Below are positions 27,870 through 64,000 of a stretch of DNA of 64,000 nt, piece by piece; position 1 is the first letter of the stretch, and every line of letters begins with the position of its first letter. The notes beneath the pieces are model-generated. The model made no database searches. It was not told the DNA's origin and worked only from the letters and a program-made list of their open reading frames with translations. The position numbers and the translations under genes were made by a program. Source of the DNA: Hormiphora californensis (Eukaryota; Animalia; Ctenophora); NCBI GenBank assembly GCA_020137815.1, contig CM035360.1, forward strand, positions 7,564,001 through 7,628,000, written 5' to 3'.

Positions 27870-29954
27870 TTATCGTCGATATGAAGATCTTCCTCGTCCG
27901 CCAGCCATGTGTGTCTTTCCCTGGTAACTATGGTTACCGCCCTGGTTACCATGGTTACCACTATCTCTCTGATCTTGGCGGCTGTCCATCTGCCTATAAC
28001 TAACCCGATCTTGCTCAAACTGATCATCATAGTTCCTCTGATCTCTGTCAAAGTTCCAACGCTCGTACTGTTGCTGGGGTCGGTCGTTACCACGTGTCTT
28101 GCCACGTGAGTTGTTGTAACCCCTGGTGTCACGTGACTCTGAGTTGTTGTAACCCCTGGTGTCACGTGACTGTGAGTTGTTGTAACCCCGAGTCCTGTTG
28201 TCACGATCATTTCTATCACCTTGGTAACCCCCACCCCCTCCACCTTGATTATTATACCGCCGATCCTCATACCCCTGATTCTGCCGCTGGTTCTGCCTAT
28301 CTTCGTATCTCTGTTCATACCGCTGACTGGACCTCTCCTCATGTCGTTGGTTGTATCTCCCATCATCTCTAGACCTATAACTGTTCTCAAATTGACGTGA
28401 ATCCTGTCTTCTCTCAGGCCGTGAGTCACTATTATTATCCTGCCTCCTGTAATTACTACTACCAGCACTGCCCCCAGTATAACCACCAGCACTGCTTCCA
28501 GAGTAACCACTAGCACTGCCACCACTATTTCCCAAACTGAGTTGAGCCATGGCACTACTAGCACCATCATCATCATCATAAAGGAGGTGATCGTGGACCT
28601 CAAACCCGTCCTCGTCAACCTCAGGGGGGTAGGAAGGAGCAGCACTATAGGAATTAGGAGCAGCATTATAGGAAATAGGAGCAGCATGGTGGGATGAACC
28701 AGAACGGGATGGTGGAGGGTGGGAGGGAGTAACGAATATGGGGGCAAACCCATCATCTGGAGGCCCTGAATCAGGTGGTGCAGTAGGTTTGGGACCTCCT
28801 AGTTCAGGGAAATCCATATCACTGGCTTTGAAGGGTTTGCTGTGTTGTACTGGTGGTGGTTGGTAACTACCCCTCCTACCTCTCCTACCTCTGTCTCTTG
28901 TAGTTGAATCTCGAGAAGGTTTCTCATACATGGCTAGATCAGGGTCCTGACCCCTTCTTCCCCTCCCTCCCCTTGAATCATCATCATCTCCACGATCAGG
29001 GCGATCACCCCGGTCCCTCTTTCCTCTACCTCCGCGAGAATCTCCACGCCCTCTACTGCTGCCTCCACGAGAATCTCTGGAACCCCTACTACCTCCTCGG
29101 GAGCCTCCCCGGGAATCTCCTCCTCTTCCCCGGGAATAGTTTTCTCGCCCTCCACGGTTACTACTGCTGTGTTCAGTATCACGGTTACCATAGTTACCAC
29201 GGTTATCCTCTTTATGGTTACCATGGTTACCTGCACTTTCCTCACTACGATCTGTATCCCGTCTATTCCCTCTATCTGATGATCTACTACCTCGGTAAGA
29301 GTCCCCTCCACGACCCCTCTTGCCTCCCCTCCTCTCTGTCTCCCCTATTGGCTGGTTCTTCTTCCCTGGCCTTGGCTTCTCCTCCCTCACCGGCAGCTCC
29401 TCCTCTGTCTCCCTAGTAACCACTGGTTTTACTAAAGCAGGTGCTTTACCTGACCCAAATGGTACAAATTTAGGGGGTCCACCCACTCCATCCCCACCCT
29501 TCCTCTTAGTAATCCCTTCATTCTTCTCTATATTCTCAACCAGTCTCTCTACTCTCCCTCCCAGGATCTCACAATTACTGGGTGTCAGAAGTAGGAACCC
29601 GCCCAACACCTGGACAGTCCCGGTTAGTCTCACCTTGGTACCAGGGTAACACTTCCCACTGAGGTTCTGGATCGGTGCCAGATTCATTGCAGCACACGTT
29701 GTATGTCCGTCACTGAGCGTCAACCTGAACATGCTCTTAGCTGAGCCATTCTCAGTGCTAATCTTTGTGTGACTGACATCCTTCAATTTCTTGATTTGAA
29801 CTATCTTGGGCCCGGTTATTGTTGGGATGGAGGGTAGATCAGCAGGGATCCATTTCTCTCCAATATGGTGCAGATCTGTATCAAGGAGTTCAGAGTGTGA
29901 TTTCCCTGATACTGAGGGGAGGAGTAGCCATCCCTCAGCGGATAGAGGTTTCAT
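27870..29954 (-). CDS. TDRD3-like protein: N-terminal RMI1/TDRD3 OB-fold plus long RGG and Y/Q/N/G-rich disordered tail; single exon
   Basis: DLHHIG..LP, GPKIVQI, MFRLTLSDGHTTC, PGTKVRL, GFLLL..N.EILGGRVERL match the TDRD3/RMI1 OB-fold; 694-aa ORF. Confidence 0.8.
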   Translation of the reverse strand: MKPLSAEGWLLLPSVSGKSHSELLDTDLHHIGEKWIPADLPSIPTITGPKIVQIKKLKDVSHTKISTENGSAKSMFRLTLSDGHTTCAAMNLAPIQNLSGKCYPGTKVRLTGTVQVLGGFLLLTPSNCEILGGRVERLVENIEKNEGITKRKGGDGVGGPPKFVPFGSGKAPALVKPVVTRETEEELPVREEKPRPGKKNQPIGETERRGGKRGRGGDSYRGSRSSDRGNRRDTDRSEESAGNHGNHKEDNRGNYGNRDTEHSSSNRGGRENYSRGRGGDSRGGSRGGSRGSRDSRGGSSRGRGDSRGGRGKRDRGDRPDRGDDDDSRGGRGRRGQDPDLAMYEKPSRDSTTRDRGRRGRRGSYQPPPVQHSKPFKASDMDFPELGGPKPTAPPDSGPPDDGFAPIFVTPSHPPPSRSGSSHHAAPISYNAAPNSYSAAPSYPPEVDEDGFEVHDHLLYDDDDGASSAMAQLSLGNSGGSASGYSGSSAGGYTGGSAGSSNYRRQDNNSDSRPERRQDSRQFENSYRSRDDGRYNQRHEERSSQRYEQRYEDRQNQRQNQGYEDRRYNNQGGGGGGYQGDRNDRDNRTRGYNNSQSRDTRGYNNSESRDTRGYNNSRGKTRGNDRPQQQYERWNFDRDQRNYDDQFEQDRVSYRQMDSRQDQRDSGNHGNQGGNHSYQGKTHMAGGRGRSSYRR

Positions 29955-30132
29955 ATAATGGCGCTACTGGGGAGGGATATTGGGTTAGTAGCCATTCTGA
30001 ATACTTGTGGTGATATAGCAGTTTACAAAACTTGAAACTTTAAAAAATCAATCCCTTCACCACCATGAAATGTCCGTGTGTTTGATTGGGATCCGTTTTT
30101 ATAAATGAAAACACTAAAAACAACCAGCTTCT

Positions 30133-54909: not shown

Positions 54910-57694
<2,785 letters not shown>

Positions 57695-58641
57695 ACTTCC
57701 AAATGAACCATAGAATTGTCATTTTGTTTTTAATTAAGGAATTTATGATTATAGTTAACTTTTTGATATAACGGTTGTTCGGGGCAGGAAGCTTTGATAG
57801 AGAAAGAGAGAAGGAACAAAGACAGAGAAGAAAGAGATAGAAAGAAAAGAAAAAGAGTGTGCAAAATGGGGATATCCCGAATCAGTGAATTGTTTTAAAA
57901 ACTTTATGTTGGTGAAAAATAAGTCAAACCTATAGGGATGAGAGAACTGAAAAGTGAGAATGAGAAACGGAAAAAAGAAAACGAGAAGGTGTTTTGCGTT
58001 TTGTTAAAATCTCATACGCTAACTTCTTCATTGCTTTCAACATATATTGCAGCTACCGCAGAGTGCTGCTGTTTTGTAGTCGACCTTTATTCCCTGTGTA
58101 CTACATTACATTTCAACGAAATATGTCTTTGTGTGCTCCCCTGTGTGCCTTTGGAATGAAGAGAATTCAATGTAAGGTGGGATATATTAGCACTTGTTGA
58201 GTTATTATACAAGCTGGATTGAACTGTTGTACAGCTGCCTTATATGACACTGCTAAAAGTATGACACTCTGTAAACCTTCCGCGTTTAGTGACTTGTGGT
58301 GTTTTGTGTGCACTAGCCGCCGCTGCAGCTGCAGTGGTGAACGCAAACACAATTACATAGTTCAAACATGTTCTATCCCTTCATCTCTCTATATTTCTTA
58401 CTCTATCTCTCTAGCTGTCTGACCCTATCTTTCTCTCCACCTCTTTCCGTTACTTGGTCGACATCTGCAGAAACGGATAGAAAGTGTGCCTTTACACTTT
58501 ACAGCTTTGTGACATGTGCTTTTCCCTCTCCTCTTTCAGTTTACCAATTGATAGTGAAGCATATTTGTTAAACTGTGATTTTCTCTAATCCATTATATCC
58601 TTTGTTCTAGAACCCTTAAACGACGATCCAGTACTATTACG

Positions 58642-59353
58642 ATGACCTACAACCGAAAGTCCCGTGACGCAACATCGCTAACGACCACTACTACTGCTGC
58701 ACAAGGCTATGGGATCACCAACATTCAGTGTGTCCCTCCCCCGGTCCGATATGCCCGCAACAAGCCTGTAAAGTTCGAGAGTTATGGAGAGGTCTTCTGT
58801 CAGACGGCAGTAAAGCCCAAGGTATCTGAAGTGACGTCAGCCAAGTTCTCGCGCCGTCAGGATCGCCAGACCTCGCTACACCGCAGTCACAGCAGCTCCC
58901 TACTGGGGAAGGAGGATGAGGTCAAGACTGAGGAGATTGTGCCAAGAAGGAAGAGAGCAGAACCAGTTCCTCTACCGTCGAGCTACCGAGATAATGACAA
59001 AATGGGATTCAGGACCGATTGTGGCGCACAAATATGAGAGCGATTTTGATGATTCAGCGCTGCTTGGTATAAAGAAGAAGACCTTCAAGGTAGAGGAGGA
59101 TAACCTGCTGAGAGATTACGAGCGGAGGAAGGCGGAGAAAGCTAAAGCAGCGGAGAGGGAAGAAGAACGGGCTGCCAAGGCCAAGGAGGAGAAGTTAGCT
59201 CTCATTCGATCTACACCATCCACCCCATCTGCATCTCCTACTCCTAAACAACCCTCCACCCCATCCCCTACTCCTGCAGCAGCTCCTGTTGCAGAGCCAG
59301 CACCCGCAGTAAGTACTACACCAGGGGATCAGGCAGCCGAGGAAGGACAGTGA
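58642..59353 (+). CDS. Short paralog of the upstream SAH protein (1-nt frameshift near 59000)
   Basis: Shares RKSR, YGxTN, YxRxKPV, GEVFCxT, AKFxRRQxR, WDxGP, [12 protein letters not shown] with 54910-57694. Confidence 0.8.
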
Positions 59354-59685
59354 TGGACTGAGAGATATATGTGTGCATGTATCACAAGTAAAATACTGAA
59401 GAAATTATCTAAAATGACTTGTTGAAAAAATATTTAAAATGCCTTGATTCAATCTTGTGTTCATTCACCCATGTGTGCATACATCTAATCTTCTCTCCGT
59501 CCTGTTTCTAAATCTAACGCAGTGAAAAAACCAAATTTGTTCTAAACTGTTTTATTCAGTGAAAGAAGATTATATAGAACACAATGCGTTGATCTCATGC
59601 AAAGATCTTTCGAAGATCCCTCAACGCAAATTTTACAAAGTTGGTAGAGATATAATTTGAATTTGCTCCGATTCTTTGCTCCATT

Positions 59686-60864
59686 ATGTATCTTGCTCTA
59701 ACTACCCTTCTCTGCGGGTCCCTAGTCGTCGCGATTGAAGATCCATGGACCAACCCTCCCTTCATGGCCTGTTTCAAACCTACAAACCCTTTGCAGCACC
59801 AGGCACCATACTACTCGGTGACAGCAACCAACCCTGTAGCGTGTGCAGATCTCTGTCTCCTCTACTCTAACTGCACCACTATCACATTCCATCTGGTTAC
59901 CCAGTCCTGTTCCCTGTTCAATATGAACCACATTCTTTATACCAAACCATCCATGGTACATCTGACAGCATCCATTTACTGCATCACCATCAACAGCTAC
60001 TACACCTCCCTCACCATGCCTGAAGTTATTGTAATGACACTCACAGTTGACTGCATGTTTGAGCGGAGTTTTCTGAAGGGAAATTCCAGGGTTTGTCTTT
60101 CTAGGATGGGTGCTATGTCGGTAAAGTGGGGAAAATGTTCGGGAACAAAGAGTGTGGTTTGGAAGATGGAGCAGATGAGTAATGGGCCGCCAGTTGGTAA
60201 CTCTCTATCCATCTTTGTGCAGATGCGAGTTAAGTCCACTGATCTCTGTCTTGCTCATGCTAGTAAAGTTCTTGGAGTTTCGAGTACCGGAGTTTTCCTT
60301 GCGAAATGCTCAGAGAACGTGACATCCGACCCGACCCAGCAATTTGTGATAGTGTTTGATTCAGATATTGAGTTTGGTATAAATCTGAACATTCTAGAAA
60401 CCAGTATCACAGAGCCAAATTATAGTGATCCAATCCTCTTATACGGAACTGTTAAAAACATAACGAATGAAGATATTATGTATTTGGAAACCATCGCCTC
60501 ACAACTAAACGGATTCTTTGTTCCCGCCCATGTCATGCCTTGTGACACTTCAACCATTGGATGGAGATATGGAGAAATTCGTACCAAATCTACCCTCACC
60601 CAGGTTCCAGCGGGTGTCATGGCGACCCAGGTGTGTCCCAATGGGGTTGAGACCACGGTGACATGTTCTAACCGCACCTTTATCGGCCTCACTAAGTGTA
60701 CTGAAGAGGAGAAGGAAGTAGAGGAAGGGATGGTGGTGATACAGAGTAAGTTGCTCTACACTCTTTACGCAATGAGTGCATCGTTCGTGTTTTTCTTTCT
60801 TATTTCTGTAGCGGTGTACTCCGTTTCTAGTGCAGTGAAAACGGCAAGAGAGATGAATGAGTAA
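59686..60864 (+). CDS. Single-exon type I membrane protein: signal peptide, PAN/Apple-like domain, Cys-rich ectodomain, TM helix, short tail
   Basis: MYLALTTLLCGSLVVA; CADLC...CTTITF...SCSLF; TM LLYTLYAMSASFVFFFLISVAVY. Confidence 0.8.
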   Translation: MYLALTTLLCGSLVVAIEDPWTNPPFMACFKPTNPLQHQAPYYSVTATNPVACADLCLLYSNCTTITFHLVTQSCSLFNMNHILYTKPSMVHLTASIYCITINSYYTSLTMPEVIVMTLTVDCMFERSFLKGNSRVCLSRMGAMSVKWGKCSGTKSVVWKMEQMSNGPPVGNSLSIFVQMRVKSTDLCLAHASKVLGVSSTGVFLAKCSENVTSDPTQQFVIVFDSDIEFGINLNILETSITEPNYSDPILLYGTVKNITNEDIMYLETIASQLNGFFVPAHVMPCDTSTIGWRYGEIRTKSTLTQVPAGVMATQVCPNGVETTVTCSNRTFIGLTKCTEEEKEVEEGMVVIQSKLLYTLYAMSASFVFFFLISVAVYSVSSAVKTAREMNE

Positions 60865-61769
60865 CTTTACTTTGTTCTGAGAAGTGGACCAGAATTGAAG
60901 CCATCCTACAAAGTAGCTCCTTTTTATTTTCAAACAATTTCAGCAGGGATATTCGATATAATCTTGGGTAACATAAATCAGTGTTTTCTGGACAGCTCGT
61001 CTATCTATCATGTCCGGGTTGTGCTTGTGGTACAGATATACAAGGGTGTGATGTGTACCTATATATATTATGCTGTTTAGTTATTCCAGCTCTTGATGAT
61101 TATTATTTTAATAAATCCATTGCTTTATCTCTCAACAGTCATTGGTCATTTATATTTAGCTGGTGACAAGTATAACACTACCCCTGCTATACAAGCCTAC
61201 ATGAAGGTCGGGGGCCCACTGCAGGTACAGACTGATAGAGTGCCGCGTGGATATTGTATTCTTCTCATGTATCTCTGTCTCTCTCAGTGTCCTTCTTTCT
61301 GTCTCTCTCTATCTTTTTCTCTATATTTCTCTATCCCTCTCTATCTCTCTCCCTCCCATTAAGACCACTATCTAAGTCACACTAAAACATATATTCACAC
61401 AGTGAAAAGCACCGAGCAGCAGAGGAGACTTTTTGCATAATCCCAGTAAGCGCACCCGACCCAACACGCACCTTTCTACCACTCCAAGCACTAAAAGCGT
61501 ATCTGTACTTCAATAAAATATCAATCACACCAAAAGATAAGCTCTCCAGACTAGCAGATCCATGTACCAAGATACGCCCAGAGGATCGGTCTGATTTGGT
61601 AGGTCACGTGATCTCAAGCCACATCCTGGTCGCTGTGTGTGCAAGAGCGTCAAACAAGCTTTTCTCTTGGTTTTCGTGTGTGTTTGTGTGCGTGTCTTAT
61701 CTTCAAGCACATATGCGTTTTATACCACTGTAAATAGCCTTGTAATATAATAATCTACACGCTGATTGA

Positions 61770-63905
61770 ATGAGGTTAGTTTAAAACCGTGTGTTGCTCT
61801 GGTGCAGATTTTAGTGTAAGATCCATTTAGTTGTAGCGTTTCTAAAAAGAGAATCAATCCAACTTGAGTTCATATATCAGTCCTTTATTTCAGAAATCTC
61901 ATATTTGCGGCAGCGCTCTTATGCTGCCTGTCCCTGCTTGTTGATGGGGCTTTCCAAAGGGGTGGGGTTATTAGAGTCCGGAGAGGTCTCTCCGTGAGAT
62001 ATGGATATATCCGATATAGGGGAAGGAGGACAGTCATCTACTACCGTGGCCAGCCAAGGTGCGTGTTCCTTTTTTACCTTTAACTACCACTGTGTGGGAT
62101 ATGAGAGATACCCATGTTCCCCGTACCTCTAAGTCCACCCCATCCCCTTACTTTAGTTCTAGATATGACCTGGTGCTTATTGACATGTGAATGTTACTGA
62201 CATGTGAACGTGTTGAGAGAGCCCGGTTAGACCTGTGGAATGCATTGATAGACAGAGAGAGCTAGTGAGATCGGCAGGTTTTACTGGTAGAGTTTAGATT
62301 AGTTTTTAGGGAAAGTTATTCAGATATATGAATCTGAATAGGCCGCCATCTTGACTTGAAAGGTGTTAACAGTTCTAGTCCAGAGAGCGTGTCTTAAACT
62401 TTGGTAGTACCCCTGTTGTTTCTGGTACAGAAGTCACGTGACTGTTTTGTTGACGGGATATTTAAGCAGAAGTGAAGAGAGACAGAGGAGAGATTCTTCT
62501 CTCTCGGGGTTCTTCTCTCTCCCACCACTGAACATCGTGTGTGAGTCTCGTCTGTGTGATCGACCGTCCCTGAGTTTTGATATGATCGTGTTTATGAATC
62601 TCTGTGATGCGTGAATGTGTGAATGATGAACTTTGTGTGCGAGATCTCCCGAAACAGTTGCAAACTTGGTGAACTACTGTGTTTTGAGATTCCCTGGGTG
62701 ACGAACCCGCAATCTGAACAAGCCTAACAACCACCCACCCACATATGAACGTCTAACATCCCCACCCCATACGTTCAACTGCACTTCCTACAACTCCAAT
62801 AATTGATCCTCCTCCAGGACATATCATGGTCGACCAGTGTGTCGGAGGAGATGCTACATTCGTTACTGTTATATAAACAGGAGGCGTGTACCGGTCTACT
62901 ACTTCACTCGCCGACCTGTCTATGGATACCGATCGAGGTAAACTCATGTAATGATAGTTCGCCACACAGTAGTACATATTTCAAGATATATCTCAGTCGC
63001 TAATCACACTCTTCCTTGACAGAGGTGGTAGAAGGTACAGGGTGGTCTATGTGAGGCACCCTCATCACTTTGTGAACAGGGGCAGAACCATTGTACTGGA
63101 TGGACCTACTTACAGGTACACAATTCTATAGATTCTACACACAACACACTGTTCCTTATACCATCTAGATCTGAACACACAGCCTCTCTTACGGCCACTT
63201 TCATGAGTCTAACCCAATTCTCAAATATCATATTTTCTTCCCTTGTCAGGAACATGCACGGTAGAATGCTGACCAGATCTCGTACCGGATCCTTCCATGC
63301 TGGTGGTAAGGGTTGCTACTACAAGGGTGCCTTTATTCCCTACGGATCGAGAAGGAAGACCAGCTCCTGTAATGTTTGTGTCTGCAGTGTTAGTGGAGGG
63401 TTCGCTAAACTGAAGTGCCATACTGACAGGTTTGTGATATCCGATGAGAAGATGATGAATCTTCTGGTTAAGATGTGTTCAAATGTATGATTATAGCTTT
63501 GGTTTATATCTGTATTCTGTGTTTCTCGCAGGGCTTGTCTGATGGAGAACATGAGGCGACCCGAGGTAACCACCCACGGGTACGGTGTATCTCGAAATGG
63601 ATGTAAATACGAGGGAAACATCATTCCTTTCGGGAAAATCGCCCAAGTATCTCGTTGTAAGGTAAGCATCTCTCTTTCTAAAAGTTAAATGCTTGTAATT
63701 GTAATGCCACAAAGACGTCTTGTTGGTGACTCTCTATCTCTTCCATCACCCTTTTTGTCCTAGGTGTGTGGGTGTTATGGCGAGCCCCGGGCAGCGACTG
63801 TAAAGTGTAAGATCGACAGCGCCTGTCTGAGGGGATACTGCTTGTACCATGGATATAAGATACCTTACGGGAAATCAATCGTCGCTGGATGTAAAATGTG
63901 CACCT
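61770..63905 (+). CDS. Secreted Arg/Tyr-rich protein with VWC-like Cys repeats, continues past window; exons 61770-61774,61894-62058,62818-62937,63023-63115,63250-63429,63532-63661,63764-63905
   Basis: Seven phase-consistent GT-AG exons with no stops; signal peptide MRNLIFAAALLCCLSLLVDG; three CxYxGxxIP[YF]G..CxxCxC units. Confidence 0.85.
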
Positions 63906-64000
63906 GTAAGTAATACTTATTACTATTAGTAACTGAACTGCCAGTGTTACAGAAATCTAATCGACTAATTAACCAATTAATTAGGTACTCGTGTTGGAGG

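Follow-up and report, generated by a model that had tools for sequence, protein, structure and literature searches.

Positions 61770-64000 on the forward strand of a 64,000-nucleotide stretch of the Hormiphora californensis genome (assembly GCA_020137815.1, contig CM035360.1, positions 7,564,001 to 7,628,000; hereafter the window) hold the first eight exons of one spliced, transcribed gene that continues past the end of the window. Judged from sequence, what it encodes there appears to be the head of a giant secreted protein of modular build, from a family encountered here in ctenophores only. The product begins with a signal-peptide-like stretch and a head that is exceptionally rich in arginine and tyrosine, and it continues as a chain of six-cysteine modules. 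Each module looks like the N-terminal, fibronectin type I (FnI)-like half of a von Willebrand factor type C (VWC) domain without the C-terminal CC..C half. The reading favored here, at a probability of roughly 45%, is that the gene encodes the N-terminal end of a very large secreted modular protein that serves as a sticky, structural part of the extracellular matrix, mucus or secretory granule. No account of the family, or of an Arg/Tyr-rich ctenophore protein, was found in the literature searched; it is a family of truncated VWC/FnI-like repeats, seen in ctenophores, with a polycationic, Tyr-rich head specific to one lineage.

Transcripts and gene model

All seven introns of the gene model are bounded by GT and AG, and splice-site reading combined with translation leaves the reading frame intact throughout. 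Expression was followed with contigs from three runs, consisting of two seawater libraries (X1 and X2) and an added run (X3). X1 and X2 have word shares of only 0.06 and 0.05, which carry no information on habitat. The X1 contigs, which represent poly-A RNA, are 90-99% alike to the window and join exon 1 to exon 2 (side 34) and exon 4 to exon 5 (side 28), while exons 3 and 4 as well as exons 7 and 8 are connected via loose ends. The equivalents of exons 5 and 6 are joined by an X3 contig from a diverged homologue.

The most extensive transcript, a metatranscriptome contig of 1218 nucleotides (L001), was recovered when the exon 5 peptide was used to scan metagenome records of the Joint Genome Institute (JGI). 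Its single open frame has 405 codons and is not closed at either end; it is collinear with exons 2-8, proceeds for 122 further codons, and carries the junctions between exons 2-3, 3-4, 4-5, 5-6, 6-7 and 7-8 in one frame. X1 contigs align to L001 without joints. Two of them hold exon 4 whole between letters of exons 3 and 5, and only contig 8 bridges a junction with at least 31 letters on both sides, spanning exons 7-8 with 61 and 148 letters on either side. No X1 contig lies over the 2-3, 5-6 or 6-7 junctions, and no contig of X2 or X3 aligns to L001 at all; the 2-3 and 6-7 junctions are carried by L001 alone. A second contig returned by the same scan, L002, is phage-like and was set aside as unrelated. 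An earlier sequence-only reading of the window had proposed that these exons belong together, a proposal that hinged on whether transcripts join them. They do so in X1, in X3 and in the collinear L001, across introns with GT-AG borders.

The eight exons all lie on the forward strand. Exon 1 (61700..61774) consists of at least 70 nucleotides of 5' untranslated region followed by ATGAG, that is, the start codon and two bases of an arginine codon, with the coding part at 61770-61774. It is defined by an X1 RNA contig that lies on 61700-61733, continues for 33 diverged letters ending in ATG, and then joins to 61892/61894; a GT donor stands directly 3' of 61774. Exon 2 (61894..62058) covers MRNLIFAAALLCCLSLLVDG, which is the signal-peptide-like stretch, as well as the beginning of the Arg/Tyr head, where the motifs RVRR and GRR are found. 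Beyond intron 2 (62059..62817), whose 759 nucleotides are skipped by L001, exon 3 (62818..62937) adds to the Arg/Tyr head the three N-terminal cysteines (CRRRCYIRYC) and is linked by X1 loose ends to exon 4 (63023..63115), which encodes an Arg/Tyr/His part of the head. The X1 joint between exons 4 and 5 is at 63112>63247 (GT..AG, cut +3). Exon 5 (63250..63429) shares 98% protein identity with L001 and contains the end of the head and five of the six cysteines of module 1. Exon 6 (63532..63661), which is reached by the exon 5-6 joint of the X3 homologue, supplies the sixth cysteine that completes module 1, then a linker, and half of module 2, up to its middle. Exon 7 (63764..63905) then completes module 2 and opens module 3. 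Its donor at 63905, with GTAAGT from 63906, is fixed by an X1 loose end and by L001, and is the exact position at which the earlier reading had ended the gene. Of exon 8, the first 16 nucleotides (63985..64000) fall within the window and the exon runs beyond it; it encodes the rest of module 3, with an X1 loose end reading CTCGTGTTGGAGG...

Several features of the introns may be recorded alongside the gene model. Every one of introns 1-5 (61775-63531) has phase 2 and interrupts an arginine codon of the AGR type (ATGAG|A, CCAAG|G, TCGAG|A, TACAG|G and GACAG|G). The lengths of exons 2-5 (165, 120, 93 and 180 nucleotides) are all divisible by three, which would allow any of them to be skipped without a frame shift; exon-skipped forms do not occur among the contigs aligned to the window and L001. 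Introns 5 (63430-63531) and 6 (63662-63763) are exactly 102 nucleotides each, which places exons 5-7 in one genomic reading frame broken by three stop codons. Intron 2 contains a stretch (62093-62770) that is matched by a 983-nucleotide X2 contig (depth 19.6) with 38 other letters and 20 gaps, and also by three X1 contigs. This stretch, which occurs only once in the window, may represent a mobile element or a dispersed repeat; its longest open reading frame (ORF; 62465-62752, minus strand) has no Pfam match. The spliced product has no paralogue within the window by tblastn, where all matches outside the gene have E values of 2.3 or more.

The six-cysteine modules and their family

A phmmer search over 1.84 billion protein representatives identified seven proteins at E<=0.001. 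The best match is KAL5249065.1 from Mnemiopsis leidyi (hypothetical protein ACHWQZ_G018042, 1854 residues), with an E value of 9e-39 over eight stretches. Two relatives from ENA of 1482 and 1367 residues (P0006 and P0007) start at module 3, and three further ENA entries are fragments of 250, 143 and 60 residues (P0004, P0008 and P0010). The remaining match (P0009; E 2.9e-5) is a CRIM1-like protein of 689 residues from sea urchin with canonical VWC repeats. Between KAL5249065.1 and the L001 protein, the alignment extends from the head through module 3 with 32% identity over 280 columns (E 1e-34). Both have a hydrophobic N-terminal stretch, a Tyr-rich head with two cysteines in common, and three modules of the same pattern. 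What follows module 3 differs: about 450 residues of Lys/Asp/Ser/Thr-rich repeats in KAL5249065.1, compared with about 45 residues in L001. Further on, the Mnemiopsis protein has a basic, coiled-coil-like stretch and then modules up to its C-terminal end, bringing it to at least 12 modules (12 as defined by a regular expression) and 13 CxxCxC motifs. With an orthologue of 1854 residues, the gene in the window appears to encode the head of a long protein and not a short precursor.

The modules follow the pattern C-x(16-17)-C-x2-C-x-C-x(9-10)-C-x5-C, summarized as C-x17-C-x2-C-x-C-x10-C-x5-C. Within the window, two modules are complete and a third is cut off after its first part. In the L001 protein, the third is completed, a fourth is added and a fifth is begun, making four full modules where at least three short Cys modules had been anticipated. 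From the sixth cysteine of module 2 to the first cysteine of module 3, there are only four intervening residues. In L001, module 3 is followed by a Ser/Thr-rich linker of about 45 residues, with 17 of 30 residues being Ser or Thr in one stretch, before further modules appear.

The Pfam VWC model (PF00093) detects four stretches of the L001 protein at 22.7 bits (E 1.2e-4), covering profile positions 1-41 of 57, against a gathering cut-off of 27.6 bits. The same cut-off is not reached by the Mnemiopsis orthologue (19.2 bits) or by the two long ENA relatives, one of which scores 16.0 bits while the other is not listed. With VWC2L_C, the Mnemiopsis protein scores 25.3 bits and the two ENA relatives 19.4 and 21.5 bits, all below the cut-off of 27. 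As a control, the CRIM1-like protein scores 231 bits with Pfam VWC. When exons were searched singly, one of six pieces gave a match, namely exon 5 with VWC2L_C (E 0.056) and Pacifastin_I (PF05375; E 0.067), both of them sub-threshold. A word-indexed search of longer proteins with exon 5 produced five candidates, none of which was scored, and the ESM Atlas gave no usable match.

The cysteines themselves define the relationship more closely. A VWC domain has ten cysteines in all and a C-terminal CC-x2-4-C motif. The N-terminal set (C1, C2-x2-C3-x-C4, C5 and C6) is present in all four L001 modules and in 30 of 30 collected modules, the latter by construction, since the modules were collected from four family members with a pattern requiring those cysteines. 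A hidden Markov model built from the 30 modules falls in register with each of the seven VWC domains of the CRIM1-like protein, from C1 through CxxCxC. The C-terminal subdomain (C7, C8C9-x2-4-C10) is missing in 30 of 30, as each module stops after its sixth cysteine. Taken together, the module is VWC-like, as the sequence-only reading had called it and as the sub-threshold Pfam match and the CRIM1-like match support, yet it is short of two defining VWC features. Because the loss of C7-C10 leaves C2 and C6 without partners on the VWC disulfide map, these two could pair with each other, giving a predicted pattern of 1-4, 2-6 and 3-5 in each module.

An AlphaFold2 model based on a seven-row alignment presents each module as two beta hairpins, with a predicted local distance difference test (pLDDT) score of 75-87. 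In comparisons by VIA-align, the top rows are FnI structures, with the FnI pairs 3ejh and 2cg6 at Z 4.5 and 4.3 and the tissue plasminogen activator finger 1tpn at Z 4.2, the last with a root-mean-square deviation (rmsd) of 1.6 over 42 of 50 residues. VWC-type chains are also found, specifically von Willebrand factor (VWF) C4 (Z 3.9), VWF C6 (Z 3.4), collagen IIA vWC (Z 3.2) and CCN3 vWC (Z 3.0). The Foldseek rows comprise NEL, a multi-VWC protein and the best of them, together with VWF, mucins, FnI, and the vWC domains of collagen IIA (probability 0.93, rmsd 1.8 over 41 columns) and of CCN3 (rmsd 1.2 over 38).

Set beside known systems, the modules resemble the VWC repeats of CRIM1, kielin, NELL, collagen IIA and CCN3 in having an aromatic residue two positions past C1, the C-x2-C-x-C motif and two more cysteines, and in being arrayed in tandem within large secreted proteins; the modelled hairpins superpose on the vWC structures of collagen IIA and CCN3. 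They differ from these repeats in having six cysteines only, in scoring below the cut-off, and in fold matches that are non-significant on the scales of the tools. With FnI fingers, the modules have in common a length of about 40-45 residues, a two-hairpin, disulfide-locked layout and the best structural rows, whereas there is no sequence-level match and all Z scores are below 5. FnI fingers have four cysteines and no CxxCxC motif.

The protein is also highly constrained. L001 and the window exons have 88-96% DNA identity, with 57 nucleotide differences and two residue changes in 274 shared codons. A simple count of the Nei-Gojobori type between the window and L001 gives proportions of synonymous (pS) and nonsynonymous (pN) differences of 0.247 and 0.0064 for the head (pN/pS 0.026) and of 0.301 and 0.0064 for the modules (pN/pS 0.021). 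Head and modules alike are under strong purifying selection. By reading of the position table, 24 of the 26 listed differences between X1 and L001 fall at third codon positions. Since the differences among the window, L001 and X1 are mostly silent, the protein, its Arg/Tyr head included, stays almost the same in three or more diverged lineages or haplotypes. As a separate observation, the window and L001 differ at synonymous sites by about 0.25-0.30, and in several places the X1 contigs that overlap disagree with one another. Both signs point to a gene shared in the sea by cryptic sister species or by haplotypes that have diverged deeply.

The Arg/Tyr-rich head and possible functions

By eye, the N-terminus of the product looks like a signal peptide, with the basic start, hydrophobic core and small-residue end of MRNLIFAAALLCCLSLLVDG following the expected order, and here the sequence-only reading holds up. 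Its residue count for positions 21-128 also agrees (30 Arg, 16 Tyr, one Asp, no Glu and no Lys). Counted up to module 1, the head is 127 residues long and includes 33 Arg, 16 Tyr and one acidic residue, for a net charge of +32. In Mnemiopsis, the head is 137 residues long with 15 Tyr, 13 Arg and 10 acidic residues, for a net charge of +5. With Tyr at 16 versus 15 and Arg at 33 versus 13, tyrosine richness is a trait of the family and the arginine load a trait of this lineage. Three cysteines are found in the head (positions 56, 60 and 65 of the L001 protein), the first two of which (C-x3-C) are common to Mnemiopsis while the third is not. RX[KR]R sites and G-dibasic sites occur twice each in the first 140 residues of the L001 protein, along with six Arg runs that are two or three residues long, and the basic sites of the head are not kept in the Mnemiopsis orthologue. 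An OB-fold was considered for head residues 12-80 and rejected, as it reached only Z 2.4-3.2 in VIA-align on a model with a pLDDT of 61-74.

In the favored reading, each module would fold into two beta hairpins locked by disulfides, much as the N-terminal VWC subdomain or an FnI finger does, and the tandem array would be stiff and open to cross-linking. The linker rich in Ser/Thr is probably O-glycosylated, and the head, being polycationic and aromatic, may bind polyanions via charge and via cation-pi or pi-pi contacts. Candidate partners are glycans of the ctenophore mesoglea or mucus, whether sulfated or acidic, and foreign surfaces that carry negative charge. The odd number of cysteines in the head could leave one free for an intermolecular disulfide. 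In a 2026 preprint (10.64898/2026.02.02.702917), ctenophore mesoglea is described as mucins plus novel polysaccharides, so that polyanionic partners for such a head exist, and ctenophores are described as being without the fibrillar collagens that build most animal matrices.

Several points weigh against a structural role. The function is deduced from architecture and charge only. L001 ends after 405 residues, and the large size of the protein is borrowed from Mnemiopsis and from the relatives of 1482 and 1367 residues. No curated Pfam cut-off is reached by any domain in the four family members. The structural matches are weak, with 0 of 48161 chains at Z>=5 in VIA-align and none at E<=0.001 in Foldseek. 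A second model of modules 2-3 alone is poorer, with a mean pLDDT of 58.7 (67-79 in the modules), and in the AlphaFold2 model of the head, which relies on an alignment with one informative homologue, residues 14-78 appear as hairpins at a pLDDT of 61-74 and the rest falls below 50. Low-complexity regions in adhesives or matrices usually evolve fast; because the head is almost invariant between two lineages, its role may instead be sequence-specific. Finally, repeated VWC modules are the mark of bone morphogenetic protein (BMP) regulators, which have another kind of function.

Among the other functions that could be served by this architecture, a colloblast or tentacle glue is unlikely. Here the Arg/Tyr head would work in the manner of mussel foot protein 3 or 5 (mfp-3 or mfp-5), with its tyrosines converted to 3,4-dihydroxyphenylalanine (DOPA), and the Cys modules would provide cohesion. 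The more specific form of this idea, a part of the prey-capture glue in which the chain of mini-VWC modules gives cohesion and the polycationic, Tyr-rich head serves as a surface-binding primer in this lineage, is doubtful to the same degree. The mussel proteins mfp-3 and mfp-5 are DOPA-type adhesive primers that are secreted, cationic and rich in Tyr with Gly. The head is similar in composition only, being secreted and strongly cationic with 12-13% Tyr accompanied by Gly, and the mfp-type combination of high Tyr and cationic residues in a secreted protein is indeed found (16 Tyr and 33 Arg to one acidic residue in 127). Temporary adhesives of flatworms likewise pair a cationic part with Cys-rich modules. 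The organism, moreover, is a ctenophore, and the molecules of the colloblast adhesive were still unidentified in Babonis et al. 2018 (PMC6278862) and in a 2021 preprint (10.1101/2020.06.27.175059).

Other properties set the head apart from the mussel proteins or speak against a glue. It shows no sequence relation to the mussel proteins, it is fused to a large Cys-module protein, and it is Val/Ile-rich and modelled as beta hairpins rather than disordered. Tyrosine next to a cationic residue, the hallmark invoked in the sequence-only reading, turns out to reflect composition: 7 of the 16 tyrosines have an Arg neighbour, and this level of Tyr-Arg adjacency is reached by chance in 6453 of 10000 shuffles. 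The head is under strong purifying selection, and its Arg load is missing in the orthologue from Mnemiopsis even though this animal has colloblasts, as described in PMC6278862. In the available InterProScan sheets of Babonis et al. (PMC6278862), covering 189 colloblast and 165 tentacle candidates, the VWC identifiers IPR001007, SM00214, SM00215 and VWFC occur 0 times, a weak negative as the family is sub-threshold anyway and the ML gene identifiers are not mappable. The mussel-glue, DOPA, colloblast and antimicrobial proposals alike draw on composition alone. If the protein were a glue, it would represent convergence with mussel and flatworm adhesives and offer a first molecular handle on the colloblast adhesive.

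It is similarly improbable that the protein is a secreted TGF-beta/BMP regulator along the lines of chordin, kielin, CRIM1 or crossveinless-2, with modules that bind ligand and a basic head that tethers the protein to glycans. The sole non-ctenophore match is the CRIM1-like protein (E 2.9e-5), and NEL, the best Foldseek row, is a multi-VWC protein. In the structure of crossveinless-2 with BMP-2, the BMP contacts reportedly lie in the N-terminal part of the VWC domain, and it is with this part that the modules align. Nevertheless, the modules are without the C-terminal four cysteines of VWC, no curated threshold is attained, and the giant size with long charged or Ser/Thr-rich linkers looks structural rather than regulatory.

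Less probable still is a precursor of cationic antimicrobial or signalling peptides, in which cleavage at RVRR, GRR and RRR would release Arg/Tyr-rich peptides from the head, with a gomesin/tachyplesin-like hairpin among them. The dibasic and RX[KR]R sites counted above, the extreme charge and the CRRRCY stretch all suit such a precursor, and the sequence-only reading had seen gomesin or tachyplesin in CRRxCY. Those peptides are short basic hairpins with four cysteines and two disulfides. The head has only three cysteines, of which two are kept in Mnemiopsis, and neither the third nor the basic residues are retained there. In addition, what follows the head is a long modular protein and not a short pro-region. 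Antimicrobial peptides tend to evolve quickly, which is difficult to align with the strong purifying selection on the head. A PDB sequence search at E<=10 gave no similar solved chain, in a library of chains of at least 20 residues that leaves gomesin outside it.

A multi-domain serine protease inhibitor of the pacifastin type is barely credible: module 1 has a C-N-x-C-x-C core, exon 5 gives the Pacifastin_I match at E 0.067, and the pairing 1-4, 2-6 and 3-5 that would remain after loss of the VWC C-terminus is presumably the pacifastin pattern, but the match amounts to 13.4 bits against a cut-off of 27.9, a search with the whole protein at E<=10 does not list the family, the four modules here have 16-17 residues from C1 to C2 as opposed to 9-12 in pacifastins, and no pacifastin chain is among the fold matches listed by VIA-align and Foldseek. 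Nor does the protein show the marks of a gel-forming mucin. In the mesoglea preprint (10.64898/2026.02.02.702917), such mucins are described as having VWD-C8-TIL assemblies and a C-terminal cystine knot, neither of which was detected; at E<=1, the only Pfam models listed for the full-length Mnemiopsis protein are of the VWC type.

The family is without annotation and appears to be composed of giant secreted proteins with a truncated six-Cys VWC/FnI fold. Its head is among the most cationic, Tyr-rich secreted segments likely to be met, and an unusual segment of this kind under strong purifying selection is a concrete candidate for a matrix or glue role. The modules indicate that, in one of the earliest-branching animal phyla, repeats can consist of the N-terminal VWC subdomain by itself, which bears on the origin of the chordin/kielin-type repeats.

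Neighbouring loci in the window

Directly upstream of the gene, and unrelated to it, is a single-exon ORF (59656-60861, forward strand). Its product begins like a signal peptide, has a PAN domain (E 1.9e-4; 21.6 bits, cut-off 21.4) and carries a hydrophobic stretch at the C-terminal end. Farther upstream on the same strand, a 654-codon frame (54914-56875) begins with a Ser-rich part, after which come about 450 residues of repeats that are rich in Glu/Lys/Arg/Ala and coiled-coil-like; it belongs to no Pfam family. A similar N-terminal motif recurs in the frame at 58579-59034, which suggests a putative paralogous exon or gene just downstream of the 654-codon frame.

On the minus strand, a single-exon ORF of 697 codons (27873-29963) encodes a TDRD3-like protein with an RMI1 N-terminal OB-fold domain. 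It is 85% identical to a EukProt entry, 45% identical to its Mnemiopsis counterpart and 51% identical to a Bolinopsis microptera protein over 41% of the length; with other animals, identities of 28-42% are seen over shorter parts only. Together with the Mnemiopsis match of the modular protein, this places the window in a ctenophore that stands at some distance from those two lobate genera. The Mnemiopsis orthologues of this ORF and of the modular protein gene are each located on a contig of 15,610,916 nucleotides, which suggests that both are on the same Mnemiopsis chromosome, even though their locus tags are 725 apart. Other ORFs of the window have animal-type Pfam domains, including ankyrin, BTK motif, ATP-sulfurylase, GH65 and ABC-2 transporter.

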